Shown here: positions 8,150 through 63,515 of the stretch, in pieces
How positions within the stretch are numbered: the first letter of the stretch is position 1
How the letters are laid out: every line of letters begins with the position of its first letter
Source of the DNA: a virus
Lineage: Duplodnaviria > Caudoviricetes
Virus record (IMG/VR): IMGVR_UViG_3300033182_000484
Coordinates: 681-64,680 of that record
Length of the DNA stretch: 64,000 nt
Direction: 5' to 3' (one strand)
Made by a program: the position numbers and the translations under genes
The notes under the pieces: model-generated
Databases searched by the model: none
Told to the model about the DNA's origin: nothing
The model's input: only the letters and a program-made list of their open reading frames with translations

Positions 8150-8260
8150 CTCCAATTCAATCTACGCATATTGTAGAGGATTGACGGATGGCGTCAACAT
8201 CTTTTTTCACAATTTTTGTGCATTTTTTTGTGGACACAAAGACGACGCCGTGTATAATGG
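8150..8260. promoter_or_regulatory. Divergent sigma70-like promoter pair
   Basis: Leftward TTGACG-N16-TACAAT (8197-8170); rightward TGGACA-N16-TATAAT (8231-8258); AT-rich; TGTGGACACA box at 8229-8238. Confidence 0.8.
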
Positions 8261-11165: not shown

Positions 11166-11217
11166 GTCGCCTCCATGGTTTTGTGTGGCCACACACTAAC
11201 CCGTCACGCTCTCCAGA

Positions 11218-30571: not shown

Positions 30572-31150
30572 CTAGATGGCCGCGACGTCAGCGGTATAGG
30601 TGTGCTCGCTGATCCGCACGTAAACGCGGGTGTAGGTGTTACCCCACTCCTCGTTCACGTCGTTGGAGAGATCCACGATGCGGAACCCGGCGTTGCCAGC
30701 CGCACCCACGAGGGTGGACGACAACGTGCAGGACGACAGACCGGTGTCCGTCGAGCCGTTCGTGGCGTTCGAGTGGTCAGCCTGATCACCGATGCTCGTG
30801 CGAGCAAGGCTGCCATCACACTCGACCTCGTAGATGATCGACTGGTCGGTGTAGATGTAGCAGTAGATGTCGGTGTTCGACTTGGTGGTGGTCGAGGCGG
30901 GCCAATGCGCGCTCACGACCTGTCGACCAGCGGTGTCGGTGTACTCGCATCCGGCGAAAACGCCGAGGATGCGGTTACCGGCAGTCGCCGGAACGATCAG
31001 GCCTGCGGTGCCCATCTCGATCGGCTGGTTGCAGTAAATGGTCGTACCGTACCCAGACGCGAGACCGCCCTTCATGATCTCGTGCTGGACGGGACGACCC
31101 GATTCGGTCCGCACGGGGCGGAAGCCGAAAGGAGCGGCAGTATCTGCCAT
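30572..31150 (-). CDS. Capsid-associated (cement/decoration) protein
   Basis: APFGFRPV N-terminus, GVF.GCEY.D..G; immediately upstream of the capsid gene. Confidence 0.72.
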   Translation of the reverse strand: MADTAAPFGFRPVRTESGRPVQHEIMKGGLASGYGTTIYCNQPIEMGTAGLIVPATAGNRILGVFAGCEYTDTAGRQVVSAHWPASTTTKSNTDIYCYIYTDQSIIYEVECDGSLARTSIGDQADHSNATNGSTDTGLSSCTLSSTLVGAAGNAGFRIVDLSNDVNEEWGNTYTRVYVRISEHTYTADVAAI

Positions 31151-31161
31151 GATAGGTCTCC

Positions 31162-31824: not shown

Positions 31825-31838
31825 TTTCCGTCTCCTTG

Positions 31839-32978: not shown

Positions 32979-32988
32979 GTCGCGCCTC

Positions 32989-33441
32989 CTATTCGATCAT
33001 GTGGTCGAGCGGGTTCCCGTGAACCTTCCCGATCACGTCGGTGTCCTGGAAGATCACGAACAGCGCTTCCTTGCCGTTCCGCTTGATCTCCCACTTGTCG
33101 CCGCCGTACTGCGGCACGCGGATGTAGTCGCCCTCGGCCACCCAGGCCCCCTCGGCCCAGGGCTCCAGGGTGTTGCGGTCACGGTAGGCGACCGGGCCCA
33201 TGGAAATGATCTTGCCGAGCTGCACTCGCCACTTGTCCAGTTCCTGGGTCTCGTCAGGCTTGATAATGCCCCCGGCGGTCTTCTCCTTCGGCAGCGCGAG
33301 CTGAACCAGCACGCGGTCGCCGAACGGGGTGACGCCAGGGTCGATGTCAGGGAAGTGCTCGGCGAGAATCGCCCCGGCGACCTTGGTCTTGCCGCTCAGG
33401 CGCACGCCCTTGTTCTTCCTAGAAGTTGTCGCGCCGCTCAT
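32989..33441 (-). CDS. groES: GroES-like co-chaperonin
   Basis: PFGDRVLV..EKTAGGII.P..G.I..MGP..GD.I..YGG..D.DV.G. Confidence 0.82.
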   Translation of the reverse strand: MSGATTSRKNKGVRLSGKTKVAGAILAEHFPDIDPGVTPFGDRVLVQLALPKEKTAGGIIKPDETQELDKWRVQLGKIISMGPVAYRDRNTLEPWAEGAWVAEGDYIRVPQYGGDKWEIKRNGKEALFVIFQDTDVIGKVHGNPLDHMIE

Positions 33442-33613
33442 CGTCTTCTCTCTCCAGGTTGTCCATCTGCTCCAGCACCCAATCAAGGCCCTGGCAGAAT
33501 CCGACACGAACGGGCTGCTCGATGCGGTCGTAGGCCTTGTGCAGGCCCTGCTCTCGCTCTCGTAGCTCGTTCTCTACCTGTGATCTGAGAAGATCCAGTA
33601 GGTCTCTGCTCAA
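33419..33613 (-). CDS. Small helical protein between portal and GroES
   Basis: 64 aa, VG..QGL motif, TTG start. Confidence 0.55.
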   Translation of the reverse strand: MSRDLLDLLRSQVENELREREQGLHKAYDRIEQPVRVGFCQGLDWVLEQMDNLEREDDERRDNF

Positions 33614-33615
33614 AC

Positions 33616-36261
33616 TTAGTCTCCGGGCTGTCTGGTGCTAAAGGACGATCCGTCCTTCAAGTTACCGCTGCCCGAGTTGCCTCCCCGGTTCCGCTCTCGC
33701 GAAATGGTCAATGCCGTCTGGTTGTCGTCGTCGTTCATCTCGACAGCCGCGTCGAGTTTCGCGTCTTCGACAGCCTCGCGGCTCTCTCGATCGGCGGCGG
33801 CGTCCGCGCCCGCCTGGGCGACACGCTGCCGTTCGATGTCGATCCGTTCGTCCTCCTGATCGATCTTCGCTTCGTCGATCTCGGCCTGCTGGGCCGCGTT
33901 CTCTGCGTCCGTGGCCGCCTTGCGTTCGCTCTCCTCGCGTTGCAGGGCGATCTTCTCCTGGCGCTCGCGATCCTTGCTCTCGACCTCCTGCAGGGCGGCC
34001 TGCGCCTGCGCCTGCACCAGCTCGGTGCCATCGGACGGGCTGACGGTCTCCAGCAGGTTCATGGCGGCCTCGATCACCGGCAGGACGACCTGCGCCTGCT
34101 CGGCGGCCATGCCGTCGAACTGCTGATGCACCTGGGCCTGCATCGCGGACATCTGGTCGGTGCCCTCGGTGGCCTTGGCCATCACCTCCGGCGGGAACTG
34201 CGTCATCGCGGCCATGGCCTTGGTCATCGTCGCCTCGTACCACATCAGCAGGTGGTCCTTGATGTGCTCGATCATGCCCGGGATCAGCTTGGACGCGAAC
34301 ATCTTGGACGCGCCGAACAGCGGGTTCGCCAGGAACGACAGGTGGACGCGCAGGTGGGCCTCGTGGATCTGGTCCGGGAACGCCTGCTGCATGTCGCCGA
34401 GCGCCAGCGCCACGTTCTCCTTCACCGGATCCGTCGGCTCGGGCTTCGGACGCTTCGGCAGCAGCTCCTCGGGGTTCGGCACCTTCAGGTGCTGCAGGAA
34501 CCGGCGTGCGATAGCCTCGCGGTCCCAGTTCAGATCCGGGAACAGCTCCAGGGCCACGCGGGTGACCTCCTGCAGCACGACGAGGCGCTGGGTTTCGGAG
34601 AAGATGTTCGGATCCGACACCGGCTGGATGTCGGTCGGGCCCTCGTAGTCGGACCGGCGCGCGATATCCAGGCCGGTCTCGCCGTAGGCGCGCTCCTCGT
34701 CCAGGTAGTCGCGGTTCATCCGCGCCAGGATCTTCAGGGTCAGCGCCATCGACCGGTGCATGCGGCCCATGATCGACGACGTCACCTTGGATCCGCTCTC
34801 CAGGAGCGCCATGGCCGTGCCGACCGGCATGTTGTTCCCGGCCTCGGCGATCTTCTCCTCGGACGTCGTCACCACGCCCTTGCCAACATCGGTCAGGAAC
34901 CCGAGCAGCTGGTACAGCACCATGTTCGGCTGCGGGTACGGCAGCGGCATGGCCAGCTTGCGGATGTCGTCGATGCCGGACGAGGCCGACACCTCGACGT
35001 TCTCGGTCGGGTTCACCCGCTCGGTGTCACCGCTGTTGCGGCCACCCTTCATGCGGACCAGACCCGGGAAGTTCGCGATGTGCGCGCTGTTCAGCAGGCT
35101 GCGGAGCGCGCCGGTGAGCGCGCCGGAAATGGATCCGATCAGGTGTGGGAACCCGACGGCGTAGGGGCCCTTCCACGGGATGAAGTTCCAGTCGACCACC
35201 CAGTCGACCTCTTCGATCTCGCCGTACTGCGTGACCGCCTGCTCGTCCCAGTTCCGGTAGATCGCCAGGATCTTCCGCTCCAGGACGTCGACGGCGATGA
35301 TGTACGGCACGTCGCCGACACTCTCGCCGTCTTCGGTCATCGCGAGCGGGTCTTCTCCGTCCAGGTCCTTCCAGACGTACATCTGGTAGATCCGGCGCTC
35401 GCCGTCCTCGTTGTTCCCGCTCGCCTCGACGCCCTGGATCTTGTCCTGGGCCTGCTGGGCATCGGAATCGGTGGGCTCGTTCTGCGGCGCGACGTCCGGG
35501 TCGATCACGTCGGCGTACATGCCGCCACGGATCCGCTCCTTCACGACGGACGCGCTCAGGTCCCAGACAATCGTCCGGCGGCGCGCGGCCTTGAACCCGG
35601 ACGCGGCGTACGGGAGCCACATGCGGTCGACCGGCACGAACTCGCACCTGGGGCCGCCGTTCTCCCAGAAGTGGATCATGTACTGCGACCCGCCCAGGCC
35701 GAGCTGGATCGACATCTGCTCGTGCGCGTCGATGAACCCGGGCGACTGGGTGGTGATCTGGTAGTTGAGGTGCTTGCGCTTGCGGTCCGCCGCCTCGGTG
35801 CGCTCCTCGTTCGCGTCGTCGATCATCTTGACGCGGACAGGGCCGTCCGGCGGGAACAGCTCCTTCATCATCATCGCGCCGAAGTCGACCGCCGCCTCGG
35901 CGATCAGCGGATGGACGACCTCGCTCGCGCCTTCGAACGCCGGACCGCCCGGGGCATCTTTCCCGAGCCCGGTCCGGCGCAGCCCCTCGGCATACTGGTC
36001 ATCGCGCTTCTTGGTGGATTCTTTGTCGCGCTCGGCGTCCTCGATCAGCTTCGCGGCCAGCGCGTCCAGGAACCCTTCGTCCAGGAACCGCACGAGGTTG
36101 ACCCCGAACTCTTCCAGCTCCGGGGCCGGGCCCTCGTCGCCCGCATCCCCCTCGACCTCGAAGATCTCGTCTAGGAGCTGCGCGTCCTCGTCCGACATCT
36201 CCTCGTCGATCGGAACGATGTTGGTCGGGCCGCCGATGTCGAACTCTTGTTCCAGCGCCAT
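33616..36261 (-). CDS. Portal protein
   Basis: FEGAS.VVHPL.AEA..ELFP.DGPV, FIPW.G.Y..G..HLIG, N.PVGT.MAL.E.G; C-terminal coiled-coil barrel. Confidence 0.88.
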   Translation of the reverse strand: MALEQEFDIGGPTNIVPIDEEMSDEDAQLLDEIFEVEGDAGDEGPAPELEEFGVNLVRFLDEGFLDALAAKLIEDAERDKESTKKRDDQYAEGLRRTGLGKDAPGGPAFEGASEVVHPLIAEAAVDFGAMMMKELFPPDGPVRVKMIDDANEERTEAADRKRKHLNYQITTQSPGFIDAHEQMSIQLGLGGSQYMIHFWENGGPRCEFVPVDRMWLPYAASGFKAARRRTIVWDLSASVVKERIRGGMYADVIDPDVAPQNEPTDSDAQQAQDKIQGVEASGNNEDGERRIYQMYVWKDLDGEDPLAMTEDGESVGDVPYIIAVDVLERKILAIYRNWDEQAVTQYGEIEEVDWVVDWNFIPWKGPYAVGFPHLIGSISGALTGALRSLLNSAHIANFPGLVRMKGGRNSGDTERVNPTENVEVSASSGIDDIRKLAMPLPYPQPNMVLYQLLGFLTDVGKGVVTTSEEKIAEAGNNMPVGTAMALLESGSKVTSSIMGRMHRSMALTLKILARMNRDYLDEERAYGETGLDIARRSDYEGPTDIQPVSDPNIFSETQRLVVLQEVTRVALELFPDLNWDREAIARRFLQHLKVPNPEELLPKRPKPEPTDPVKENVALALGDMQQAFPDQIHEAHLRVHLSFLANPLFGASKMFASKLIPGMIEHIKDHLLMWYEATMTKAMAAMTQFPPEVMAKATEGTDQMSAMQAQVHQQFDGMAAEQAQVVLPVIEAAMNLLETVSPSDGTELVQAQAQAALQEVESKDRERQEKIALQREESERKAATDAENAAQQAEIDEAKIDQEDERIDIERQRVAQAGADAAADRESREAVEDAKLDAAVEMNDDDNQTALTISRERNRGGNSGSGNLKDGSSFSTRQPGD

Positions 36262-36262
36262 G

Positions 36263-38779
36263 TCAGAAGTCCCTCATTCCAGGCATTGGCCTGTACGCTG
36301 GAGCGGGACGTCGGCGGGGGCTTACCGTGCCCCCGCGATATAGGTCTCCTGGGCCGTCAGCACCCGACCGTGCTGCGCTTGCTCCTGGTCCGCCACCCCC
36401 AAGCGCCGAAGCTCTTCCCGCAACATGCGAGCTGAGGGGCTGTCCGAACCGCTCCGCTGGATTGACTTTTGCAGTCTCGCCTCCAGCCGCTCCCGGTAGG
36501 AAATCGTCATAGCTCTCCTTCCCGGCGACCAGCGTGTCAAAATGCGTCAATTCGGAATGAATGACGCCGTCAAGGCCGCCTACGGCATCGGCGATCCTAT
36601 CAAACAGCTCTTCTTTCTCCAACATCAAACCTTGCAGGACCTCCGGGTCAGCCATGGCGGCTCTCGCGCCCTCGTCGAACCGGGAATCGATCTCCGGGAT
36701 CCACTGCATGCGCAGGCCGACGTAGCCTTCCGGGTCCGCGCCGCCCGCTGACTTCACGTCGTGGCGCAGGTCGACGGTCAACGTGAGGCCGTCGGCCCCT
36801 TCGTCGTTGATCGTCTGAATGATTTCCTTCGCCTCCTCCAGATCCTTCGGTGTGCGAAATGCCACAGACAGGCCTGGGCGGGCATTCGGGTTGTTCATGA
36901 CCTCGTGCGACGGCACGATTCGCGACACGAACGCGTCGGTCTGCCCGGCGTCCTTGGCCATCTGGAACACCCGCTGGGTGAACTGGTTCGCATCGAACTG
37001 CGACGGGTCCGCCACCACCTCGACGTCGAATGCTCGCTCGGCATCACCGGCGTACAGGCCCTGGGTCGGCTGGACCTTCACCACGTTCACGCCTGGGGTG
37101 CGGGTCAGGCCGTCCAGCAGCTCCTCGCGCGCGACCTCCTGGGCCGCGTCGGTCGGCACGGTGTCCTGAGTGATCGAGATCCCGGCCTGCCACGCGGACT
37201 GCGGGTTGGCGTCCAGCTGCTGCTCGAACGATCCGCCCTCGCCCTCCTTGGACGTCCAGTTGTTCTCGGTCCAGTGTTCCTTCTCGCGGAACCACATCAT
37301 CGCCTGAACGTCGTCCTGGCCGAGCATTTCGCCCTCGCGCAGCCCGGCGGCCTCGCGGAACGCCGGATCCGCGTTCAGCCGGTCGGTCAGATCCGCGATG
37401 GCCTTCTGGCCGAACCCGAACTCGCCGGTAGCATCGAACCGGCCTGCCTCGGCGGCCTCGCGCGTCACGTTGCCGGTCACGGCCTGCTCCATGCGCGGGG
37501 GCACCCGCTTGCCACCGGCTAGCCGCTGCATCATGCGCGCGGCCCAAACATCGATCGTCGGCTGCGTCGAGAACCCGCCCAGGTTCCCGGCGAAGTTCTT
37601 GGTCTTCGGCTTGCTGCCAGCCTGAGGCGTGCGCCACACGCCGGAGGCCAGCAGCGAATCCATGATGGGCATCGTGTTGATGCCGAACTTGGTGCCGTTC
37701 TCCTTGCGGATGATCGGATAGTTCTCGGGATCCTGCTCGTGGCGCTTCATGTACTCCTTCGGCCCGATTCCGTCCTCCTTCGCCTTGGCGTACTTCGCCA
37801 AGGTGTCGTCGAACTCGCCCTTGGAGAATCGGCGCATGGCCTGATTCGCCAGCGCCCAGTTTTCCTTCACGTTGGTCTGCGCGGAGCTGGCCCCCAGGGT
37901 GTCGACCAGGAGATCGCCCAGGCCGCCGTACTCTTCACGGAACCGGTGCCGGACGTTCTTGTACCAGCCCGCCTGCCGGAAGATCGTCAGCGCATTCGGG
38001 TCGCCCCTGCGCGCGCGCTCGGCCAGCTCATGGAACTCGGTGTGGGCCTTCTTGGCGACCTTGTCCGGCGTCGACAGCTTGTTGAACCCGTAGGCCGCCT
38101 TCTTCCACTCCAGCTTGCCGTCCTTCACCCGGGGCTCGGACATCGGCATCCACCCGTCAGACACGGGGTGGGCCTTCTTGGCGTTCTGGATATCGGCTGA
38201 GAACTTCTTCCGCTTTGCCTTGTCGGTCGTCGCAGCATTGATCACTGCGCGCTCCTCGGGCGTGACCCTCGCGGTCTTCACGGTCGATCGAGCACCGCGC
38301 TTGACGTTCATCGTGTGACCGGCACTCGCGATGTCATCGACGATCGACGGGTTCAGGACATCGTCCACCGCCTTCGCCCCGGCGCGCAGGAACCGCTTGC
38401 CGCCCTTCACCAGGACACTCGGTGCGCCCGCGACGGTCGCGCCCACGCCGATGCTGTTGATCAGATCTGGGTTCGCGAGCCAGTCGTCAATGGCGGCCCC
38501 GCCGCCGACGTAGGGCACGAAGTCCGCAACGCCCACCTCTCCGGGCAAGCCGGATCCCGGTCCCCCTGCCATGGTCTGGGCCGCGTTGCCTGGGAGGCCG
38601 GACAGGGCGCTGGTCAGCGCCCCTCGTGCGGTGGTCGGCGCTGCCGTCGCTGCAGCCGGAGCTGGCGCGGCGCGCGCGGCGAGATAATTCGGATCGGACG
38701 GAGACGGCATCACGGACGCGCGCACGGCGGCGTCGATGTCGGCTGGAATTGGCGCATATGACGGACGGCTGCGTGCCAT
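36263..38779 (-). CDS. Large protein between terminase and portal with a DNA-glycosylase-like (DUF7178-like) central domain
   Basis: WY..GASSAQT.V..N..A, KT.NF..NL.G..TIDVWAAR, DDVQAMMW motifs. Confidence 0.6.
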   Translation of the reverse strand: MARSRPSYAPIPADIDAAVRASVMPSPSDPNYLAARAAPAPAAATAAPTTARGALTSALSGLPGNAAQTMAGGPGSGLPGEVGVADFVPYVGGGAAIDDWLANPDLINSIGVGATVAGAPSVLVKGGKRFLRAGAKAVDDVLNPSIVDDIASAGHTMNVKRGARSTVKTARVTPEERAVINAATTDKAKRKKFSADIQNAKKAHPVSDGWMPMSEPRVKDGKLEWKKAAYGFNKLSTPDKVAKKAHTEFHELAERARRGDPNALTIFRQAGWYKNVRHRFREEYGGLGDLLVDTLGASSAQTNVKENWALANQAMRRFSKGEFDDTLAKYAKAKEDGIGPKEYMKRHEQDPENYPIIRKENGTKFGINTMPIMDSLLASGVWRTPQAGSKPKTKNFAGNLGGFSTQPTIDVWAARMMQRLAGGKRVPPRMEQAVTGNVTREAAEAGRFDATGEFGFGQKAIADLTDRLNADPAFREAAGLREGEMLGQDDVQAMMWFREKEHWTENNWTSKEGEGGSFEQQLDANPQSAWQAGISITQDTVPTDAAQEVAREELLDGLTRTPGVNVVKVQPTQGLYAGDAERAFDVEVVADPSQFDANQFTQRVFQMAKDAGQTDAFVSRIVPSHEVMNNPNARPGLSVAFRTPKDLEEAKEIIQTINDEGADGLTLTVDLRHDVKSAGGADPEGYVGLRMQWIPEIDSRFDEGARAAMADPEVLQGLMLEKEELFDRIADAVGGLDGVIHSELTHFDTLVAGKESYDDFLPGAAGGETAKVNPAERFGQPLSSHVAGRASALGGGGPGASAARSGADGPGDLYRGGTVSPRRRPAPAYRPMPGMRDF

Positions 38780-38858
38780 GCTTCGCCTCACGTTCTAGCC
38801 CAGTGTCGCCTCCAGCACTAGATCGTGGTCACGAAGATGCCCGCGACACCGTGATCCG

Positions 38859-40517
38859 TCAAGCCGCTCGTCGCTTGCGTGACGGGTCGTGGTCGTCCTT
38901 GTTCGGGTCTTTCTTGCCCTCGTCGTGGATCAGCCAGCCGTCCAGAACCAGCTGATGCAGGCCTTGGCAGAACGCGTCGACGTAGTCGTCGTGAGCTATG
39001 CTCCCCTCGAACTTGAAGCTGCACAGCTGCGAGATCAGGTCGTCGGCCCAGTCGACGATGTGCCCCTTGCGGGTCGTGCTCTCGGGCACCCAGACCTTGC
39101 CGTTCTCGGCGTACACCGACATGGCGTTCGCGCGCGACGTCTTGCCGCGTCGACCTGGGTTGTAGGCTTTGACCGGCAGCCCGGCGAGGTTCAGCTCCTG
39201 CTTCACCGCGATCCCGGATCCCTTGTCCTCGACCAGCACCATATCCGCCCGGCGGCCACCCGGCTGATATGCCTGGGGCCCGTACATCGGGTTGCGCAGG
39301 TCGTGAATCTCGAGGTCGGGTTTCACCGTCGGCCCCTCCTGGCCGAACGGATCCTCCAGCTCCCAGGCCGCGCCGTACTGGGTGTTGTACTCGGTCCGCA
39401 TCCGCTTGCGCAGGGTCGGGTAATCCATGTGATCGGACCACGCGTCGATCACCATCGCGTTGTAGACCGGCACGTCGCCCCGGTTGTCGATCCAGATCCC
39501 CAGCGTGACGGCTGCGGTCGGGTCGTTCTTGGTCTCGTCGGTGAACGCGGTGTCGTACGACTGGACGATGAACTCGAAGTAGGGGAACGGCTTCCCGGCA
39601 GGCCAGAGCTGGAACCAATCGCGCTCGTAGATCCCGTCCTCGGCGTCCTTCGGCTCCTGCATGTACAGGCTCGCCCAGGCACGCTTGCCGGAGTTCCGCT
39701 TGATCCGGTCGAGGGCGTCCAGCGGGAACGCCTCCGGCCACAGCGCATCGCCGGGCTTCTTGCCCAGGTACTTCGCCGCCTCGGCGTTCAGGATGGCGGG
39801 CATGCACAGCACGAACCACTGGTCGCCGCCGTTCTTCTCCTCCTGGAGCAGGAACGCGGACAGGTCGTCCTCGTGCATGCGGTGATTGATCAGCACGATC
39901 TTCCCGCCGGGCTGCAGCCGGTTGTAGACCGTGCCCTGATACCAGAGCTGGACCTTGCGGCGCTGGGTCGGTGATTCGGCGTCGTCCATGGATCCGAACG
40001 GATCGTCGATCATGAAGATGTCGGCACCGCGACCGATCGGTCGACCGCCCACGCCGGTGGCGAAGTAGGTGCCGCCCTGGTCGGTCTTCCAGAGGTTCTT
40101 CGCGGTGGTGTCCTCGGACAGGTGCACGTTGGGGAACACCTGATGATACTCCGGCGACCAGATGATGTTTCGGACTTCGCCGCCGAACTCCTGGGCGAGC
40201 GGCATGGTCGCCGAGGCGCTGATGAAGTGCAGGGTCGGATCGTGCCCGAGCGCGAACGCGGGGAACCGGCGGGATGCCAGCTCGGACTTCCCGTGCCTGG
40301 GGCACGTCAGGATCATCAGGCGATCGATCTTGCCGTGGATCACGGCCTCAAGCGTCCGGGCGATGGCCCGGTGATGGATCGCGGTCCTGTACCTGGGGAA
40401 CGTGTACTCAGTGAAGGGTATCAGTTTTTGGGACGCTCGGCGTCTTAGGTCTTCCCTGAGCACGATCTCCGTCAGGCTGTCCATGTCCATGCCCGGGGGC
40501 AGTGGCAGACTTGACAA
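38859..40517 (-). CDS. terL: Terminase large subunit
   Basis: PRHGKS Walker A, IDDP Walker B, SYDTA..D.TA, VEDKGSG, HDDYVDA nuclease motifs. Confidence 0.93.
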   Translation of the reverse strand: MSSLPLPPGMDMDSLTEIVLREDLRRRASQKLIPFTEYTFPRYRTAIHHRAIARTLEAVIHGKIDRLMILTCPRHGKSELASRRFPAFALGHDPTLHFISASATMPLAQEFGGEVRNIIWSPEYHQVFPNVHLSEDTTAKNLWKTDQGGTYFATGVGGRPIGRGADIFMIDDPFGSMDDAESPTQRRKVQLWYQGTVYNRLQPGGKIVLINHRMHEDDLSAFLLQEEKNGGDQWFVLCMPAILNAEAAKYLGKKPGDALWPEAFPLDALDRIKRNSGKRAWASLYMQEPKDAEDGIYERDWFQLWPAGKPFPYFEFIVQSYDTAFTDETKNDPTAAVTLGIWIDNRGDVPVYNAMVIDAWSDHMDYPTLRKRMRTEYNTQYGAAWELEDPFGQEGPTVKPDLEIHDLRNPMYGPQAYQPGGRRADMVLVEDKGSGIAVKQELNLAGLPVKAYNPGRRGKTSRANAMSVYAENGKVWVPESTTRKGHIVDWADDLISQLCSFKFEGSIAHDDYVDAFCQGLHQLVLDGWLIHDEGKKDPNKDDHDPSRKRRAA

Positions 40518-40821
40518 GGTTCACCAGCTCCTTCAGGTCGGCGTCGGAGATATCCTTCAGCGGGGTCGCGGCCACATTGCTGTTCAGCACCTCTTTGGGG
40601 ATGAACTTGGCGATCGTGCCAAGCATTCGGTTCGGGTTCTTGACCAGCTCACCCGCGATCAACTGCGACAGCGGACGGCCCTCGTCGGCGATCTGCTTGA
40701 ACGCGGCGGTCGCCTCGCGGCGCACGAACTCGGCGGGGCTCTCGCCCTCGTTCGGGACGTGGTCCGGGGCCTCCGGCGGAATGCTGCCGTCGTCCTTCGC
40801 GAGTTTCCGGCGTCTGATCAT
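40408..40821 (-). CDS. Putative terminase small subunit
   Basis: Helical 137 aa directly upstream of and overlapping terL; ISDADL.EL motif. Confidence 0.55.
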   Translation of the reverse strand: MIRRRKLAKDDGSIPPEAPDHVPNEGESPAEFVRREATAAFKQIADEGRPLSQLIAGELVKNPNRMLGTIAKFIPKEVLNSNVAATPLKDISDADLKELVNLVKSATAPGHGHGQPDGDRAQGRPKTPSVPKTDTLH

Positions 40822-40845
40822 GCCCCGAAGATGCGGGCGGATCCG

Positions 40846-41064
40846 TCAGAAATCAATTGATTTCTGATCCGGCGGCGGGCATGTACGGGGGGCTGGAGCT
40901 GCCTCCCCAGCACCTTGAGAGCCGTCCGAGACCTCGTGTTTCGGGCGGCTTTCTGCTTTCTCGTAGCAGGTCAGATGCAGGTCCTCGCCGGTGCCGAGCG
41001 TGACGAATCGGTCCGCCTGATAATCGATCGGGAGATCGCACGCGGCGCAGGTCGAGCGGCGCAT
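40846..41064 (-). CDS. Small zinc-binding hypothetical protein
   Basis: CxxC..HxxC; TGATG coupling with the upstream RHH gene. Confidence 0.55.
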   Translation of the reverse strand: MRRSTCAACDLPIDYQADRFVTLGTGEDLHLTCYEKAESRPKHEVSDGSQGAGEAAPAPRTCPPPDQKSIDF

Positions 41065-41222
41065 CAGTCCATCCCCAGCTGCTCCTTCAGGAGCTGCCGA
41101 ACGAGGTCGCTCGTGGTCATGCCCTGGGCCGCCGCGTAGTTGTCGGCTGCCTCCTTGAGTGCCGGGTCGATCCGAAGTTTCAAGATCGCCGACATCGGTT
41201 CTGGTAGCTGTTCATCATCCAT
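41064..41222 (-). CDS. Ribbon-helix-helix (CopG/Arc-like) transcription regulator, 52 aa (absent from the ORF track)
   Basis: MDDEQLPEPMSAILKLRIDPALKEAADNYAAAQGMTTSDLVRQLLKEQLGMD*: alternating beta strand, helix, G-x-T-x-S turn, helix. Confidence 0.8.
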   Translation of the reverse strand: MDDEQLPEPMSAILKLRIDPALKEAADNYAAAQGMTTSDLVRQLLKEQLGMD

Positions 41223-41225
41223 GTT

Positions 41226-41295
41226 TCAGTGTTGCCACAGCTCGATCTCTGTGTCCACAAAGTTGTTGACATTGTGGCCACAACCTCTACAATCT
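41226..41295. promoter_or_regulatory. Divergent promoter region with three TGTGGCCACA-like boxes
   Basis: Rightward TTGACA-N16-TACAAT (41266-41293); boxes at 41230-41239, 41250-41259 and 41273-41282. Confidence 0.8.
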
Positions 41296-41320: not shown

Positions 41321-41527
41321 ATGCAGACCCAGACCGACTTTCTGATCGACAACCAGCGCACCATCTTCGCGGTGATCCCCGTGTCCGACGAGGGCCGCGC
41401 GTGGATCGACGAGCACGTCGCCGACGATGCGCTGTGGTTCGGCAAGAGCCTGATCGTCGAGCACCGGTTCATCGAATCGCTCGTCGACGGCTTCCAGAGC
41501 GACGGCCTCACCTTCGAGGCCGCGTAA
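41321..41527 (+). CDS. Small early protein
   Basis: GGAGGCGAA RBS; P.S..G..W..W.G..VEHR..I..G..DG motif. Confidence 0.75.
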   Translation: MQTQTDFLIDNQRTIFAVIPVSDEGRAWIDEHVADDALWFGKSLIVEHRFIESLVDGFQSDGLTFEAA

Positions 41528-41556
41528 ACCGCAACCCCACAACCCAGGAGGCGAAA

Positions 41557-42156
41557 ATGGGAACTCGCGGATGCATCGGTGTCGTCGTCGACGGCACGTT
41601 CAAAGGATCGTACAACCACTATGACAGCTACCCGGAAGAGCTGGGTGTCAGCATGGTCAAGCAGGCCAGGACGATCGCCAAGGATATCAACAAATACCGC
41701 GACCTCGCGCGCAAGGTGCGGATGGTCGAGGATGGATCCAAGCTGACGGCGGAGGATCACGAGAAGTACGCCCACCTGCGCGGCGATCAGTCCGACTGCC
41801 TCGGCGAGTCGGGACACAACCCGGACGAGGAGTGGTACTCGTTCCTCCGCGACATGCAGGGCGAGCTGGTCAAGTCCCTCGAAGCTGGCGTCATGCTGGA
41901 TGGGTCGAAATTCCCGAACGACAGCCTGTTCTGCGAGTACGCCTACGCGATCAACTTCGACGACAATCTGATCGAGATGTACGAGGGCTTCCAGAAAGAC
42001 CCCGACAAGATCGAGGGCCGGTTTAAGGATGCTCCGGCAGACAGGTCAGGGTACTACGGCTGCACCCTGGTCGGATCCTTCCCGCTCGAAGCCATCCCGG
42101 ACGACTGGCAGGCCCAGGCGTTCCCGCCGGACGAGGATGAAGACGAGGCCGCCTGA
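41557..42156 (+). CDS. Conserved phage early protein (MGTR..YxHYDxYP family)
   Basis: GGAGGCGAA RBS; MGTRG..Y.HYDSYP..LG, SLFCEYAY.I.FD. Confidence 0.8.
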   Translation: MGTRGCIGVVVDGTFKGSYNHYDSYPEELGVSMVKQARTIAKDINKYRDLARKVRMVEDGSKLTAEDHEKYAHLRGDQSDCLGESGHNPDEEWYSFLRDMQGELVKSLEAGVMLDGSKFPNDSLFCEYAYAINFDDNLIEMYEGFQKDPDKIEGRFKDAPADRSGYYGCTLVGSFPLEAIPDDWQAQAFPPDEDEDEAA

Positions 42157-42353
42157 TGGTCGTCGGCTACCTCGTCCTGTGTCTCGCTGGGTACTGCACT
42201 CCGCCACTACCCAGCGAGCACACCTACCCCGATCTCCTGGCCTGCTCCACCCACCAGATGTCCCTGGTCGCGCGCCTGCCGCTCGGCTGGGGCGTCAAGG
42301 ACATGTGGTGCGAGCAGGTGCCCCCGAAACCCGAACCGAGGCCCCAGTCATGA
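42156..42353 (+). CDS. Small Cys-containing hypothetical protein
   Basis: TGATG coupling; hydrophobic N-terminus. Confidence 0.5.
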   Translation: MVVGYLVLCLAGYCTPPLPSEHTYPDLLACSTHQMSLVARLPLGWGVKDMWCEQVPPKPEPRPQS

Positions 42354-42553
42354 AGATCTGGTTCCGCAAATTCCTGATCCGCCTGGGGTGGCGGCGCTGC
42401 CGTCACTGCAACGCGGTGCGGCGTCCGGTGTGGGCGTTGGTCGTGCGGCCCGTCACGTCGTCGTCCACGGATGGCACGATCCCCCCGGAACCGCACGTCG
42501 GCGTCACAATGTACCGCTGGATGTGCCCGGCCTGCTGGAGGACCCATGACTGA
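42350..42553 (+). CDS. Small zinc-ribbon-like protein
   Basis: CxxC..CxxC; ATGA overlap. Confidence 0.5.
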   Translation: MKIWFRKFLIRLGWRRCRHCNAVRRPVWALVVRPVTSSSTDGTIPPEPHVGVTMYRWMCPACWRTHD

Positions 42554-42740
42554 CTTCGACCAGATCAGCCGGGACTACACCCGCTACGTCGCCCGCGAGG
42601 TGATCGGTCCGTGCTTCATGGACTATCGCGCCATCTTCGGATCCACGCTCCGCGACAATCCGTTCCAGGACGTCCTGCCGAGCGAGAGCCTGATCATCGG
42701 CGTCTACCCGTTCCCGCGCGAACCCAACCAGCGCGGCTAG
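42546..42740 (+). CDS. Hypothetical protein
   Basis: GGAGG RBS; precedes terminator hairpins. Confidence 0.5.
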   Translation: MTDFDQISRDYTRYVAREVIGPCFMDYRAIFGSTLRDNPFQDVLPSESLIIGVYPFPREPNQRG

Positions 42741-42805: not shown

Positions 42806-43021
42806 TCAGCTGCTCGGGCTGTCGTACGGGGGCAACCCCTTTGCCAGCGCCGCGCAGGCGTGCGCCATCACGCGCGGGATCGGCGTCTCGCCCCGCAGCC
42901 AGTTGCGGATCGTGTTGCGATGGACGCCCAGCTCGTTGGCCGCAGCCGTGTCGCTCCAGGCCATCTCCTCCAGGAACGCCTCCAGGTCGGCAGGCGTCAT
43001 GGATCCAGGCACGCGGGTCAT
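42806..43021 (-). CDS. XRE/Cro-type HTH protein
   Basis: MT..L..S..AA.ELGVHRNTI.NW..GE.PIP. Confidence 0.85.
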   Translation of the reverse strand: MTRVPGSMTPADLEAFLEEMAWSDTAAANELGVHRNTIRNWLRGETPIPRVMAHACAALAKGLPPYDSPSS

Positions 43022-43659: not shown

Positions 43660-43770
43660 GGCATTCTACATGAACGTGGCCACATGTCCAGAACTATTTC
43701 ACAATTTTTGTGCACTTTGTTGTTGACGTCCTCGGGGTGCATCTCTACAATGTGCGTAGATTGATTGGAG
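43660..43770. promoter_or_regulatory. Divergent sigma70-like promoter pair
   Basis: Leftward TGGACA-N16-TAGAAT (43690-43663) with a box in the spacer; rightward TTGACG-N17-TACAAT (43723-43751). Confidence 0.82.
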
Positions 43771-45542: not shown

Positions 45543-45675
45543 GCATGAGGGGTTAGCGTTGGTCGGGAAATCAGGAGGGGATGCCGCCGCTACCTGCAGC
45601 CGGTCGCCGGAGGCGAATCCGATCCTTGGAGGGGATCATAACGACCGGGGCCCGACCAACGCTAACCTCACATGC
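45543..45675. ncRNA. Candidate structured RNA downstream of gcrA
   Basis: 17-bp perfect inverted repeat (45551-45567/45651-45667) enclosing inner stems and three GGAGG/CCTCC motifs. Confidence 0.5.
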
Positions 45676-46144
45676 CCATCGTCAGCCTCCCTTTTCTCAT
45701 GGCGCGCTTGATCTTGCGACGTCGCGCGGCGGCCTGCGATGGCGTCAAATATGCCCGAGCGTGGTGCTCGGCGCAATACGTTGATCGCTCCCCGCCATCC
45801 TTGGTCGTGACCTTCTCGCCGCAGTAGTACGCGTTCGCCGGATCCTGGAGCGGGTCGCCCTCGATCCAGCAGCACCGGCTCGGCGGCGGCGGATCGTTCT
45901 TCAGCTCGTAGGGCCGCCTGCCAGGGCGATACGGTTGGGCCACCCTGACGCCGCCCAGGGCCGCGCCAGCGAGCGATGCGGGCCTCTTCCGGCTCGGCAG
46001 CCCCAGGCGCGCCTTCCGGCCCACCACGGCGTTCCTGGACGTCTCCATCACCACGCCGATCTGGGTGATGCTCAGGCCCTGCTCCCACAGGTCCTTCAGC
46101 AGCTGGTCGCGCTCCGGCGTCCAGGGACGGATCGTCTCGGACAT
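45668..46144 (-). CDS. gcrA: GcrA-family cell-cycle transcription regulator
   Basis: WT.ER..LK.LW..GLS..QI..SRNAVVG..RLGL N-terminal HTH; CxWxxGDP..YCG..YC.EH..AY C-terminus. Confidence 0.9.
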   Translation of the reverse strand: MSETIRPWTPERDQLLKDLWEQGLSITQIGVVMETSRNAVVGRKARLGLPSRKRPASLAGAALGGVRVAQPYRPGRRPYELKNDPPPPSRCCWIEGDPLQDPANAYYCGEKVTTKDGGERSTYCAEHHARAYLTPSQAAARRRKIKRAMRKGRLTMGM

Positions 46145-50263: not shown

Positions 50264-50335
50264 TTCGGGCTAGTCCCTAATCGCACAAGGATGTGGCCAC
50301 ATCGCATCATGGATCGGCCACGGTGTCAAGCGAGG

Positions 50336-51563: not shown

Positions 51564-52472
51564 CTACGGGCCCTTGCGGAACGACCCGACGTTGGCCTCC
51601 CACTTGTTGTGGGTCACGCCGGTGTCCTGCTCCCAGAACCCAAGCTGCATCGTCGGCGCGGTGTTCCCGACGATCGTCGAGTGTGTCGCGCCATTGGTCA
51701 CCACGAAATGATCGCCGTCTCGTGTGGCCACGTCAACCCCCACGTTGTGCGCCACGACGTGATGCGCTCCGCCGAGCATGTGCGCCCCCACCCAGATCGC
51801 GTTCGGATTCGCCGTCGAGTGCCGGTAGATCGTCGCCGCGACCGCGTGCACCTGATGCGCTCCCTCGGCGCGCCAGCCACGCACTCGGCAGGCCATGTGA
51901 CCGCCGATGAACTGGCAGCCGACCTGGGGGTAGGACTGGCTGTCCATGCGCCAACCGTAGTTGCAGGCGATGGCGTCATGCCCGATGAACTTGATGCCCT
52001 CGGTCTTGCCCCGGGTCGTGATGTCCCGGTTGAAGTGCTGGGTCTCGCCGCCGCGCACCGTGCCGCCGACACAGTCCTCGAAGTCATAGCCGCGCCCGTT
52101 GAACCCGGTCTTGTCGCCGACCATGAACACGTTCGAGATCTCGGGCCGGAATCGACCGACCATGTGCAGGGCCTTGTGGTGCCACTCGCTGCCGGACGTC
52201 ACGTACTCGACGTTGCGGATCGTGTCGCCCTTGCCCTCCTGCCAGTTCCAGTCGCCGATCACGCGCAGGCCCTCGTCGCGCTGCCGCGTCGGCGTCACGC
52301 TGAGATCCGCGATCTCGATCCGGGGCATGCGGTTCCCGCGCCAGGGGGTCATGGCGCGCAGGTCGAACTCCCGGGACGGGAGCCAGTCGATGCCAGCGCC
52401 GCGTCCGACGACGCGGACGACGTTGCCCCAGGTCTCGACGTCAACCCGGTGCCCGGGCATGTGGTGGGTCAT
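51564..52472 (-). CDS. Right-handed parallel beta-helix (pectin-lyase-like) protein
   Basis: Repeating I.NV / G..F / I.GN rungs; no virion anchor domain. Confidence 0.55.
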   Translation of the reverse strand: MTHHMPGHRVDVETWGNVVRVVGRGAGIDWLPSREFDLRAMTPWRGNRMPRIEIADLSVTPTRQRDEGLRVIGDWNWQEGKGDTIRNVEYVTSGSEWHHKALHMVGRFRPEISNVFMVGDKTGFNGRGYDFEDCVGGTVRGGETQHFNRDITTRGKTEGIKFIGHDAIACNYGWRMDSQSYPQVGCQFIGGHMACRVRGWRAEGAHQVHAVAATIYRHSTANPNAIWVGAHMLGGAHHVVAHNVGVDVATRDGDHFVVTNGATHSTIVGNTAPTMQLGFWEQDTGVTHNKWEANVGSFRKGP

Positions 52473-54820: not shown

Positions 54821-54948
54821 GTTCGCCTCCGTGTAGGTGCCGGGCAGGGCGGCCTGGGGGGCGGTCGTCGGCACGACGATGACCCTGCCCGGCGGGTCGG
54901 CCCACGCGCATGGGCCGCGCTCAGTGTGGCCACATGCGTGGTCGCGTG

Positions 54949-55236
54949 TCAACCGTCATAGCCGCGCTCCTCCTCGTAGTCGATCGGCACGACCTTGACC
55001 TCGAACACGCCCCCCATGGCCAGGGCAGCGCTCGCGAGCCCGTCGAGGTCGACAACCGTTCCGTCGACCAGACCGGTGATCAGGCCGGGGAACCACCCAG
55101 GCGGCAGGCCCAGACGCTCCCCGATGGCCGCGTCGGTCATCCGGGTCTCGACCTGCATCCGCAGCAGCTCGCTCGCGAGCTGGCGCTGACACCGGGTCAC
55201 GGCCCAGGCCTTCCAGGCTTCAGTCAGCTGTGTCAT
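54949..55236 (-). CDS. HTH-like DNA-binding protein
   Basis: MT.A.IG.RLG..LA..A.AMG (XRE-like). Confidence 0.55.
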   Translation of the reverse strand: MTQLTEAWKAWAVTRCQRQLASELLRMQVETRMTDAAIGERLGLPPGWFPGLITGLVDGTVVDLDGLASAALAMGGVFEVKVVPIDYEEERGYDG

Positions 55237-56172: not shown

Positions 56173-56449
56173 CTTCGCCTCCTGTGTTTGTGGCCACATG
56201 ATCCTGCAGCGCCTGGGCGAGCGCTGTCAAGGGATCGATCTTCGGGTTCACGTCCGTCGCGTTCAGCATGACGTGCGTGCGGCGGATCACCGGCAGCTCG
56301 CGCACGAGGTGCGGCGGCCCGTCGAATGCATCCAGCAGCGCCTCGACGGCAAGCCTGGGCACCTGCATCATCTCCCAGGTCCCGCCGTACTCGGGTGTGG
56401 CGCGCAGGCCTCGGCCCTCGCGCATCTCGTCGAAGATCTCGTCAGCCAT
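56153..56449 (-). CDS. Hypothetical protein
   Basis: GAGGAGG RBS. Confidence 0.6.
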   Translation of the reverse strand: MADEIFDEMREGRGLRATPEYGGTWEMMQVPRLAVEALLDAFDGPPHLVRELPVIRRTHVMLNATDVNPKIDPLTALAQALQDHVATNTGGEDGNQER

Positions 56450-57714: not shown

Positions 57715-58190
57715 ATTGCGCCTCCGATCTGGCCCCTCTGGGCACTGTGATTTCTGGCCTAAGTCGTTGATATTGTTACGCTTTTTCCATTTATCAAGCG
57801 CTTCCTTGATCAGTTAAGTCCATGTTTTCATTTACCTTTTCAGCTTCATCAATGACTTACGAGGTTTTTGTAACCGTTGTAACGGGGTTGTAACGGACAC
57901 ATTGTAACACCCTAACCCATTGATATACCTTATATATATATATAATAGTTACAAAAGTTACATATTATATATATATAGTACGCGTCTGCGTCTCTCTATA
58001 CCCCCCTCCCTCCTTTTCTCTATACCCCCCTCTCTATTTTTCCTCCTCTATAGGTGTGCCTCAGAAAGTTGTAACATATGTGGCCACAATGGGGTTAAGT
58101 CGTTGGCGCATAAGGGTAAAAACCGTTACAAATGGCCCGTTACAAGGCCGTTACACTCTGCCCGAGAGGGCCATTTGTAACGGAATAGGG
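57690..58190. repeat. Putative replication origin: TGTAAC iteron arrays, (AT)n tracts and pyrimidine tract
   Basis: Largest non-coding and most AT-rich region; 11 TGTAAC/GTTACA hexamers in 57868-58181; repeated TAAGTCGTTG. Confidence 0.7.
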
Positions 58191-63409: not shown

Positions 63410-63515
63410 TTGATGTGGCCACAGTACGCGCCAATCTCTACAATGTCAAAAGAAATTACGCAATGTGTGTAACTTTTTATGTTGACATTGTGGCCACAAT
63501 CTGCGCAGGCTGCCC
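63410..63515. promoter_or_regulatory. Divergent promoter region with two TGTGGCCACA boxes
   Basis: Back-to-back TTGACA hexamers (63449-63444 leftward; 63482-63487 rightward); boxes at 63414-63423 and 63489-63498. Confidence 0.78.

Follow-up and report, generated by a model that had tools for sequence, protein, structure and literature searches.

The DNA examined here is a 64,000-nt stretch (the window; positions 681 to 64,680) of the 64,680-bp virus record IMGVR_UViG_3300033182_000484. At the locus of interest, a 52-aa ORF (P0001, 41064-41222, minus strand) encodes a predicted ribbon-helix-helix (RHH) protein. Upstream of it lies a predicted leftward promoter (TGGACA-18-AACACT, 41228..41257, minus strand; -35 at 41257..41252, -10 at 41233..41228) that is weak, with a poor score of 10.4. 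The ATG at 41222 follows this -10 after 5 nt and has no SD; the sequence-only reading had described it similarly, with a distance of about 6 nt, the arrangement can be read directly in the sequence, and a leaderless mRNA is predicted from it. Leaderless mRNAs are proposed also at 54911 and for TerS. Divergently, the near-consensus promoter TTGACA-16-TACAAT (41266..41293, plus strand, 11/12 matches) is predicted to drive the genes at 41321-42740. The same layout is found in a sister phage (G004/L097; ∼75% identical, with ∼65–83% nucleotide identity per aligned block), a single lineage carrying the same box, where the leftward promoter reads TGGACA-18-AACAGT-5-ATG and the rightward hexamers are kept as TTGACG and TATAGT. 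Between the RHH gene and the divergent promoter, all no more than 60 bp upstream of the gene, are three copies of a box, the 10-bp palindrome TGTGGCCACA, forming the only triple cluster in the window with spacings of 20 and 23 bp (start to start). Box 1 (TGTTGCCACA, 41230..41239) overlaps the predicted -10 of the RHH promoter, box 2 (TGTGTCCACA, 41250..41259) includes its predicted -35, and box 3, an exact copy (41273..41282), lies within the spacer of the rightward promoter. The corresponding sister sequences are TGTTGCCACG, GGTGTCCACA and CGTGGCCACA; boxes 1 and 2 carry one mismatch each here and two in the sister phage.

We compared the 52-aa protein with profile and structure collections. 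Pfam RHH_1 matched at 22.0 bits against a curated cutoff of 20.5 (E = 1.5e-4), and the matches to RHH_9, RelB, DUF6290 and DUF6364 were weaker and below their cutoffs. A PDB sequence search returned the DinJ RHH domain (E = 0.02, covering the RHH domain only). Three homologs (P0006, P0007, and P0009) are 52–54 aa long, P0007 being 64% and P0009 48% identical; both lineages have the same ribbon segment, ILKLRID, and 4/4 homologs retain K/R15 and R17. The AF2 monomer model (4-row alignment, mean pLDDT 75.8) has helices at 20-32 and 37-49 and no assigned structure for residues 1-19, the strand being present in the dimer model only. The top Foldseek neighbors were RHH proteins (Arc, VapB12, DinJ, AvtR, PutA, FitA, and AmrZ), at E > 0.1 throughout and E ∼1 for Arc. 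The homodimer model scored 0.67 against 0.00 for the best of three controls, with runs agreeing on at least 94% of contacts and a partner pLDDT of at least 80; among proteins of solved structure, 20 of 30 pairs of one chain and 1 of 23 single chains pass the mark used. In this model residues 13-17 pair antiparallel about residue 15 (contacts 15-15′, 13-17′, and 14-16′), giving in silico the intertwined homodimer with a two-stranded antiparallel ribbon that is typical of the family, although the pass may reflect memory of solved RHH dimers. Judged from the profile match above its curated cutoff and the agreeing dimer model, the ORF encodes an RHH family protein, as its signature had suggested in the sequence-only reading. 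The ORF had also been described there as missed by the ORF track; it is real, but it has not escaped every gene caller, since a 43-aa version starting at an internal Met (P0005, with a precomputed PF10723 assignment) is already in a public protein collection.

The RHH gene had been placed at the head of the whole terminase-to-lysis operon, which now appears doubtful. It is followed by a 72-aa ORF that is missing in the sister phage; after this, a conserved non-coding stretch of ∼200 nt, containing a hairpin and a palindrome of 20 bp, precedes the presumed ATG of the small-terminase gene. Because these elements intervene, the RHH gene may be a unit separate from the late operon. Folding of the minus-strand RNA of 40815-41070 gave a hairpin without a U-tract on that strand. 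A type II toxin-antitoxin pair was considered for the two coupled ORFs and rejected: at just 52 aa, the RHH protein stops directly after helix 2 and lacks the toxin-binding extension of a DinJ/RelB/ParD-like antitoxin, and the 72-aa ORF has no Pfam or PHROG match and is mostly missing in the sister phage.

Next, we determined how often the box occurs and where. The exact palindrome was found 8 times against 0.03 expected (shuffle mean; shuffle maximum 1), with the same 8 copies in the whole 64,680-bp record, and copies with no more than one mismatch 13 times against 2.31 expected; a reversed-pattern control over the 64,680-bp record gave 0 matches. An exact scan returned all eight of the perfect-copy coordinates listed previously; a scan allowing one mismatch returned the four named variants (8229, 41230, 41250, and 43675) and added a fifth (51723) to that list of 12. 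By an ad hoc gene map made in the present analysis, in which non-coding DNA is 8.4% of the window, 7/8 exact and 11/13 near-exact boxes are intergenic, the exceptions being 56189 (in the last codons of the upstream ORF) and 51723 (within a gene). Only 1 of 19 two-mismatch sites is intergenic, a background level. Promoters were called as consensus matches to sigma-70-type elements. Sigma-70-like core promoters (score ≥11.5) are overlapped by 9/13 boxes, compared with 1.8% of random positions in the genome and 9.3% of random intergenic ones (1500 of each). None of the 13 boxes falls in the 29-kb structural block (∼11.7–40.8 kb), and the 20001-40000 region has a single, weak promoter-like match. 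The register of the box varies by promoter (over the -35, in the spacer, or over -10/+1), and outside the 10 bp no sequence is common to most copies; the boxes at 41273 and 63489 do have the longer string TTGACATTGTGGCCACAA in common. A full-text literature search yielded no operator of sequence TGTGGCCACA among the matches listed, all of which were non-phage. We concluded that the boxes are a real, non-random, promoter-linked set, with a copy on most of the predicted host-type promoters, and the earlier description of them as mostly intergenic or on promoters is broadly right.

Outside the triple cluster, several boxes lie on recognizable, predicted promoters. The variant TGTGGACACA (8229..8238) includes the -35 of TGGACA-16-TATAAT (8231-8258, plus strand) and could be merely a -35 hexamer that resembles the box by chance. 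The exact copy at 11184..11193 covers -6..+3 of TTGATC-17-TAGTGT (minus strand) upstream of the endolysin gene (10521-11165). The variant CGTGGCCACA (43675..43684) lies in the spacer of TGGACA-16-TAGAAT (43690..43663, minus strand), which is predicted to drive an operon ending in an HTH_3 gene; at the same place the sister phage has TGTGGACACA. An exact box at 50292..50301 covers -6..+3 of TTGACA-17-TGCGAT (minus strand) and is kept exactly in the sister phage with the promoter TTGACG-17-TGCAAT. The intragenic variant TGTGGCCACG (51723..51732) overlaps the -35 and spacer of TTGACG-17-GATCAT (minus strand), and may mark an internal promoter or be due to chance. At 54925..54934, in a region missing from the sister contig, an exact box starts 12 nt past a TTGACA (54952..54947, minus strand) and overlaps a weak -10, CACACT. 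The exact box at 56189..56198 covers -3..+6 of TTGACA-18-CAGGAT (minus strand), 17 nt upstream of the ATG at 56172; its sister counterpart is TGTGTCCACA after TTGACA-18-CATGAT. The exact box at 58079..58088 sits inside an origin-like non-coding region (57715-58194) without a convincing promoter nearby. Two exact copies end the series: 63414..63423 covers -8..+1 of TTGACA-17-TACTGT (minus strand) and also carries the -35 of TGGCCA-17-TACAAT (plus strand), and 63489..63498 starts 1 nt past a TTGACA (63482, plus strand), with a poor -10, upstream of a RecT-like gene (63555).

Co-conservation of box and regulator in related phages, proposed as a check on the regulon, was found in the one sister lineage. 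Six of the seven comparable boxes are kept (41230, 41250, 41273, 43675, 50292, and 56189) together with the RHH gene layout, and at the kept positions the neighboring spacer DNA has changed completely. The seventh, the box noted earlier in the putative origin, is indeed present at 58079 and has no counterpart in the sister phage. Searches for further relatives were made by several routes. Megablast of 8 kb against GenBank phages gave no match, tblastn of TerL against the same phages gave distant matches only (best identity <35% over most of the length), and a search with the exonuclease for relatives that cover the early region turned up no close one. RHH alignment searches of IMG/VR, metagenomes and GTDB genomes recovered more copies of the sister lineage (L101, L103, and L104), the other matches (L100 and L105-L108) being distant or unrelated. 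We set aside three IMG/VR contigs with the exact 18-nt operator-promoter string (a single box each, unrelated GC, and about the number expected by chance), single-protein RHH matches in IMG/VR (37–44% identical, on unrelated small contigs), and the AGGTGGCC repeats upstream of RHH genes on unrelated contigs, which probably include ribosome-binding sites. The 68-aa product of the gene that opens the rightward operon matched only unnamed viral clusters in the ESM Atlas.

The phage encodes at least four proteins with DNA-binding signatures besides the RHH protein: a 71-aa HTH_3 protein (42806-43021, Pfam), an 85-aa Cro/YdaS-like protein (62528-62785, weak match) in the leftward operon leaving the two-box region 63358-63554, an HTH_17 protein (61102-61440, weak match), and a GcrA-like protein (45668-46144). 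A second palindrome, CACAA-N3-TTGTG, adjoins the HTH_3 operon and looks like an HTH-type operator, because in the sister phage its half-sites are conserved and its center varies. One gene of the box regulon has a Tad2-like domain, and dozens of ORFs, including most small ones, have no family assignment in Pfam or PHROGs. Integrase, recombinase, partition, and telomere-resolvase families were not found among 123 ORF translations searched against Pfam (E ≤ 0.01) or 89 against PHROGs, which agrees with the earlier remark that no integrase is visible; the 123 ORFs are picks of the present analysis, in which small or unusual genes could be missing.

We consider it somewhat probable that TGTGGCCACA serves as operator for a dimeric repressor encoded by the phage, and that this repressor is the 52-aa RHH protein (41064-41222). 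RHH proteins such as MetJ, PutA and Arc engage a dyad in one major groove, the geometry expected for a 10-bp palindrome without conserved flanks, and an HTH dimer spans two grooves; by this analogy the compact box appears to suit one RHH dimer better than an HTH dimer. In favor of the RHH protein are the triple cluster next to its gene, its own -35 and -10 lying in boxes 2 and 1, the retention of this layout in the sister phage, and a ribbon that is identical across lineages while the presumed recognition helix of HTH_3 varies. Against it count the poor RHH promoter and the unconserved origin box. In the proposed mechanism, one RHH dimer would insert its two-stranded β-ribbon, with I13, K15, and R17 facing the DNA, into the major groove at the center of a single palindrome, and with the boxes at about -37 to +6 of sigma-70-like promoters, occupancy would block RNA polymerase. 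Perfect boxes would shut down the promoters of the non-structural modules, namely those of the rightward operon at 41266, of the HTH operon and of the operons for recombination and replication, as well as a secondary promoter that precedes the endolysin gene. Boxes 1 and 2, which are imperfect and lie on the weak, leaderless promoter of the RHH gene, would give negative autoregulation at higher protein levels; autoregulation appears to be the weakest link, because these two boxes are degenerate. The net effect would be to slow or time the early and middle transcription of an integrase-less phage; a box on the promoter that precedes the endolysin gene is at odds with a simple early shut-off. 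We infer the reality of the promoters, the binding of the box by the RHH protein, the sign of the regulation, and its timing.

The boxes might instead be operators of another phage protein (HTH_3, the 85-aa Cro/YdaS-like protein, or a small unannotated one), with the RHH protein controlling only itself or something else; we consider this rather unlikely. The HTH_3 operon is itself under a box-bearing promoter, the Cro-like gene is in a leftward operon that starts from a region with two perfect boxes, and the many ORFs without family assignment leave room for further binders. However, half-sites 5 bp apart with unconserved flanks are a poor fit to a classical HTH dimer, and HTH_3 already has the HTH-like CACAA-N3-TTGTG beside its operon. 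The HTH_3 protein is 60% identical between the lineages and its presumed recognition helix differs at several positions, whereas the box is constant, and it is the RHH gene, not one of these, that adjoins the only triple cluster.

A host DNA-binding protein such as DnaA, whose reading of the box would tie the phage promoters to host physiology, is improbable. One box does lie in the origin-like region, and the half-site CCACA resembles the 3′ half of a DnaA box (the whole box matches only 6 of the 9 consensus positions). Yet DnaA-box-like 9-mers with one mismatch number 4 against 3.84 expected and none is in the origin-like region, where the box is also the only comparable one without a counterpart in the sister phage; a phage dimer is suggested by the strict twofold symmetry and by the clustering beside the gene of a phage regulator. 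We regard as very improbable that the box is no protein operator at all and represents a -35-like element (TGGCCA/TGGACA), a restriction-modification site (TGGCCA is a type II recognition site), or a repeat left by promoter duplication. A predicted -35 does fall inside the box at 8229 and 63414, and 41273 and 63489 have the TTGACATTGTGGCCACAA string in common. A core promoter element would not change register among promoters as the box does; most copies have no common sequence beyond the 10 bp, and boxes are kept in the sister phage while their flanks have diverged. Restriction sites are normally avoided in phage genomes and not gathered at promoters, and no methyltransferase was found among the ORFs scanned.

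The preferred arrangement, an RHH repressor at a promoter-linked box, resembles Arc and Mnt of the immI region of Salmonella phage P22, small phage RHH repressors at divergent promoters that regulate their own synthesis, as is predicted here. Arc and Mnt bind single 17–21-bp operators as tetramers (dimers of dimers) within one local region. Here, in contrast, some dozen 10-bp palindromes, isolated and with unconserved flanks, are spread over ∼10 promoters, and assignment to the P22 type was rejected on the basis of these isolated sites. MetJ on its 8-bp palindromic met box and PutA on its GTTGCA site place one RHH dimer on each short site, with the ribbon in one major groove, and the PutA RHH domain is a structural neighbor of the 52-aa model. 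Unlike the phage protein, both regulate host metabolism and have cofactors or additional domains, and met boxes are arranged in tandem without gaps. Phage λ CI/Cro offers a similar tripartite operator between divergent promoters, with the best site outward and the weaker ones on the promoter of the regulator. The λ cI mRNA made from PRM is leaderless, a feature predicted for the RHH gene as well. In contrast to λ, the regulator here is an RHH and not an HTH protein, one operator recurs at many distant promoters, and no second, opposing regulator was identified at the locus. A temperate, λ-like immunity region was rejected, since no integrase or lysogeny-maintenance function was found among the scanned ORFs.

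Regulators with multiple sites are found among the RHH proteins of archaeal viruses. SvtR of SIRV1 is reported to bind its own promoter and three other sites, and AvtR of AFV6 to have eight potential sites (PMC5569661); AvtR is also among the Foldseek neighbors of the 52-aa protein. These regulators act at archaeal promoters (TATA/BRE) on longer imperfect repeats, spreading along the DNA, whereas the present system belongs to a bacterial virus with sigma-70-type promoters and a short perfect palindrome on the core promoter. Likeness to anti-defense systems is provided by the Tad2-like domain gene inside the regulon. Aca proteins are small DNA-binding autorepressors that damp very strong early promoters through inverted repeats. 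Unlike in Aca systems, no known anti-CRISPR gene is adjacent here and the regulon also spans recombination, replication and lysis genes. In archaeal viruses, a conserved early regulatory sequence has been used to find anti-defense genes (PMC11065993). The box could mark an immediate-early, anti-defense-rich regulon and serve as a search key for new anti-defense genes. This is the milder form of a bolder reading, which we consider unlikely, that the RHH protein and box form a genome-wide silencing circuit by which an integrase-less phage persists as a quiet episome in a carrier or pseudolysogenic state. One 52-aa repressor would then keep nearly every host-polymerase promoter repressed (recombination, replication, and lysis-gene promoters included) and touch the origin. 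The carrier state, already raised in the sequence-only reading, is unsupported, with no partition or integration genes seen among the scanned ORFs.

These results, which most likely concern a rather ordinary kind of viral gene switch, leave the general understanding of phage regulation unchanged. If the RHH protein binds the box, an uncultured phage group would gain a complete and easily testable regulatory map consisting of one operator word, ∼10 regulated promoters and a candidate regulator, and, if true, the system would be a bacterial-virus counterpart to the multi-site RHH regulators of archaeal viruses. By means of the box, many small genes without annotation can be grouped as one co-regulated and probably early class, and this class, which includes the gene with the Tad2-like anti-defense domain, is a practical lead for function discovery.

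The 10-bp palindrome TGTGGCCACA (the box) was found in eight exact copies, at 11184, 41273, 50292, 54925, 56189, 58079, 63414 and 63489, compared with 0.03 in shuffles. Allowing one mismatch gave 13 sites against 2.31 expected; the counts for TGTGNNCACA and GTGGCCAC were 10 (0.84 expected) and 11 (2.07 expected), respectively. The motif scan returned all eight exact coordinates and the four one-mismatch variants (8229, 41230, 41250 and 43675) named in the sequence-only reading, plus a fifth variant absent from its list, TGTGGCCACG at 51723, inside a gene. The copies are nearly all intergenic, as had been noticed: seven of the eight exact and 11 of the 13 near-exact boxes on our own gene map, which was built ad hoc from codon-usage log-odds and an RBS score and leaves 8.4% of the window non-coding. 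Just one of the 19 two-mismatch sites was intergenic, and therefore the signal ends sharply at one mismatch. No box was found in the structural block (∼11.7-40.8 kb).

Promoters were predicted as consensus matches to sigma-70-like elements, in strict scans and then in a more lenient scan. By these scans strong sites are few in the genome and the majority bear a box. The strict scans gave TTGACA-16-TACAAT at 41266 (+) and TGGACA-16-TAGAAT at 43690 (-), with the box in the spacer, and TGGACA-16-TATAAT at 8231 (+) and TGGCCA-17-TACAAT at 63416 (+), with the box over the -35. Others came from the lenient scan. On the minus strand, the box covers -6..+3 of both TTGATC-17-TAGTGT, before the endolysin gene, and TTGACA-17-TGCGAT (50329), -3..+6 of TTGACA-18-CAGGAT (56230), -8..+1 of TTGACA-17-TACTGT (63449) and the -10 of TTGACA-18-CACACT (54952); a further minus-strand element, TTGACG-17-GATCAT (51736), is inside a gene. 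On the plus strand, TTGACA-18-CAGGCT (63482) holds the box in its spacer and has a poor -10. The spacer and -10/+1 placements proposed earlier recur on predicted promoters, together with boxes over the -35, and the register varies from one promoter to the next. As a control, each 10-mer was scored by the best promoter-like element placing it between -37 and +8. A cut-off of 11.5 was reached by nine of the 13 boxes, by 1.8% of 1500 random genome positions and by 9.3% of 1500 random intergenic positions. The box at 58079 is the sole one without a plausible promoter.

A TerL search of IMG/VR yielded, among the best 80 of 134 matches, only two close relatives, L016 and L017 (89% TerL identity); this lineage is also represented by metagenome fragments L101, L103 and L104. 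Alignment of the full contig of this sister phage (G004, stored as L097; 15,880 bp) with the window gave blocks of 65-83% identity and several deletions, one 49-bp block at 96% being the exception. Six of the seven alignable boxes are retained in this single sister lineage. Boxes 1, 2 and 3 of the cluster (41230, 41250 and 41273) read TGTTGCCACG, GGTGTCCACA and CGTGGCCACA in the sister phage; the 10 nt that separate boxes 1 and 2 are wholly changed, and both promoter hexamers are retained. The counterpart of 43675 is TGTGGACACA, again immediately 3' of a -35, in a promoter with TATGAT as its -10; that of 50292 is an exact box 3' of TTGACG-17-TGCAAT, and that of 56189 is TGTGTCCACA, 3' of TTGACA-18-CATGAT. 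The DNA around 51723 and 54925 is absent from the sister phage, and 8229, 11184, 63414 and 63489 lie beyond the ends of its contig. Across both phages G2, T3 and their mirror positions are invariant, and the centre (G5/C6) and the outermost base are variable. The sister contig also carries a 1.8-kb insertion in the structural block, with a symmetric two-mismatch box, CGTGGCCACG, at its edge (L097 2348-2357) inside a promoter-like TTGCGT-17-TAGTAT site; the insertion may be a gene cassette under the same box control.

The seventh alignable box, at 58079, does lie in the putative origin as claimed, but it is lineage-specific and is not kept in the sister phage. This origin-like non-coding region (57715-58194, 480 nt) contains a (TA)n unwinding tract (57926-57980), about ten TTGTAAC(G/C)G iterons in both orientations, four TTAAGTCGTTG repeats and three CTCTATACCCCCC repeats. 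Its elements are mostly conserved in the sister phage, which keeps the (TA)n tract, the ATACCCCCC repeats and the GTTAC iterons around the site.

The box cluster lies across two divergent predicted promoters. The rightward one is near-consensus with a perfect box in its spacer. The leftward one, which would serve the gene of a 52-aa ribbon-helix-helix (RHH) protein (41222 to 41064, -), is predicted to be weak: TGGACA (41257..41252) inside box 2, 18 nt, AACACT (41233..41228) overlapping box 1, then 5 nt to the ATG. It would yield a leaderless mRNA, as had been suspected, and the sister phage shares the layout (TGGACA-18-AACAGT-5-ATG). In this arrangement the strong outward promoter carries the perfect site and the candidate regulator's own weak promoter carries the imperfect ones, by sequence the classical order for a repressor that would close its target before its own gene. 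Three minus-strand genes, the 92-aa ORF (54911), the RHH gene (41222) and the presumed TerS gene (40821), have no SD and an ATG ∼5-11 nt from a -10-like hexamer, a pattern pointing to several mRNAs that are leaderless or nearly so.

The RHH gene had been placed at the head of a terminase-to-lysis operon. It is indeed co-directional with TerS and TerL, but it may be a separate unit, with ∼200 nt of conserved non-coding DNA in between. It overlaps by ATGA a 72-aa CxxC-containing ORF (40846-41064) with no family match; a 110-nt indel covering the first two thirds of this ORF removes most of it from the sister phage, and it may be a recent insertion or not a gene. The conserved non-coding stretch of ∼200 nt after the region of this ORF includes a hairpin (40921-49) with a T-tract on the plus strand. 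The stretch also holds, just upstream of the presumed TerS ATG, a perfect 20-bp palindrome, CAGAAATCAATTGATTTCTG (40847-40866), that is conserved in the sister phage. This palindrome coincides in part with a putative TTGATT-17-CATCTT-6-ATG arrangement, perhaps a late promoter from which the TerS mRNA would start leaderless.

Gene content was assigned with Pfam and PHROGs on ad hoc ORF picks. The replication and recombination block (+) begins with a RecT-like gene at 63555, wraps round to the start and includes a helicase (142-2001), a primase-helicase (2553-5420) and small genes up to ∼9300. The long minus-strand block runs from 41222 down to ∼9300 with the RHH gene, presumed TerS, TerL (38859-40517), large structural genes, a capsid gene (29642-30556), an SU10-type adaptor, an M15 endolysin (10521-11165) and a class-3 lipase (9569-10300). 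The lipase gene is two genes downstream of the endolysin gene and in one operon with it, an unusual pairing if the host is Gram-negative, as presumed. The 41.3-63.5 kb interval has several short operons, which encode HTH_3, GcrA-like, DUF2303, Tad2-like, HNH endonuclease and YqaJ/RecE-like exonuclease proteins. We infer an alphaproteobacterial host because of the GcrA-like cell-cycle regulator homolog (45668-46144, 65.3 bits) and the GC content of 64%; the GcrA-like protein suggests a possible role in switching on the box-less late genes. A Tad2-like (Thoeris anti-defence 2) domain (51.9 bits) forms the C-terminal part of a protein whose gene (50336-51043) is downstream of the box variant and promoter-like site located inside a gene at 51723-51736. 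The HNH gene (53210-53647) looks like a recently acquired homing element, since its coding score and GC3 (0.71) are far below those of its neighbours. No DNA-level match to GenBank phages was found, and named TerL relatives are distant (roughly 30% identity over most of the length), such as HTVC023P-type pelagiphages and roseophages. An exact 141-bp repeat is present at both ends of the 64,680-bp IMG/VR virus record, of which the window is bases 681-64680. The repeat need not mark physical termini: the genome may be circular or circularly permuted and the repeat an overlap left by assembly, with a length that may be tied to a 141-base assembler word size.

The RHH signature seen in the 52-aa ORF (MDDEQLPEPMSAILKLRIDPALKEAADNYAAAQGMTTSDLVRQLLKEQLGMD) was confirmed: the protein exceeds the curated Pfam RHH_1 threshold, and its PDB sequence match is the RHH domain of DinJ (E=0.02). 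An exhaustive HMMER search of 1.84 billion representatives gave six proteins at E<=0.001, among them three small homologs of 52-54 aa (69, 64 and 48% identity). The 48%-identical homolog has no Met at the position of the internal Met10, which supports the 52-aa start over the 43-aa version in a public collection. The AF2 monomer model has two helices, and the PDB structures closest to it are RHH proteins, with E-values short of significance. The homodimer model scored 0.67 against 0.00 for the best of three controls, a mark attained by 20 of 30 proteins solved as same-chain pairs and one of 23 solved as single chains, although the network's memory of solved RHH dimers may account for the pass; the runs shared at least 94% of contacts, with pLDDT of at least 80. 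In this model residues 13-17 form an antiparallel ribbon centred on residue 15, and by analogy with the Arc ribbon I13, K15 and R17 would face the DNA. Both phage lineages share an identical ILKLRID segment; all four homologs retain K/R15, R17 and the helix start MTTS(D/E)LVR.

A second palindrome, CACAATTTTTGTG, at 8208-8220 and 43700-43712 (four strand-matches, 0.43 expected), is flanked at both places by two divergent promoters, with exactly 10 nt between it and either -35. It adjoins the HTH_3 operon and is probably the operator of an HTH protein, e.g., the 71-aa HTH_3 protein (42806-43021); we take it to resemble the ACAA-N-TTGT operators of rhizobiophage 16-3. The sister form, CACAATCGTTGTG, keeps the half-sites and changes the centre.

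We consider the RHH protein the candidate binder of the box, at somewhat better than even chances, because its gene adjoins the only box cluster in an autoregulatory layout, and because a palindrome of 10 bp with unconserved flanks centres its dyad on a single major groove. RHH ribbons enter one major groove, as in the MetJ, PutA and Arc complexes, and an HTH dimer reads two, so the box geometry fits the former rather than the latter. That CACAATTTTTGTG looks like an HTH-type operator also argues for the RHH protein, as does the comparison with the one sister lineage, in which the RHH ribbon is identical and the presumed HTH_3 recognition helix differs at several positions. Against the RHH reading stand several other encoded DNA-binding candidates and many unannotated ORFs. 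Binding by another phage protein is rather unlikely, and binding by a host factor is improbable. It is hardly credible that the box is no operator at all: because its register differs among promoters, unlike that of a core promoter element, the boxes would act as operators, variable placement being what operators do. The box-bearing predicted promoter before the endolysin gene is at odds with a simple early shut-off role. The suggested carrier state found no support beyond the absence of an integrase; neither integrase nor partition families were detected by Pfam and PHROGs on our ORF picks.

Full-text searches of an open-access collection gave no account of this box, nor of a comparable regulon in any lytic phage of bacteria. 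Functional analogues are P22 Arc and Mnt, the plasmid omega repressor and Aca-type autorepressors. Multi-site RHH regulators are described for archaeal viruses, SvtR binding its own promoter and three other sites and AvtR having eight potential sites (PMC5569661). Also in archaeal viruses, anti-defence genes have been predicted from a conserved early regulatory sequence (PMC11065993). The box and its candidate RHH repressor would be a circuit of a known kind, clean and testable, in a phage lineage so far uncharacterised.
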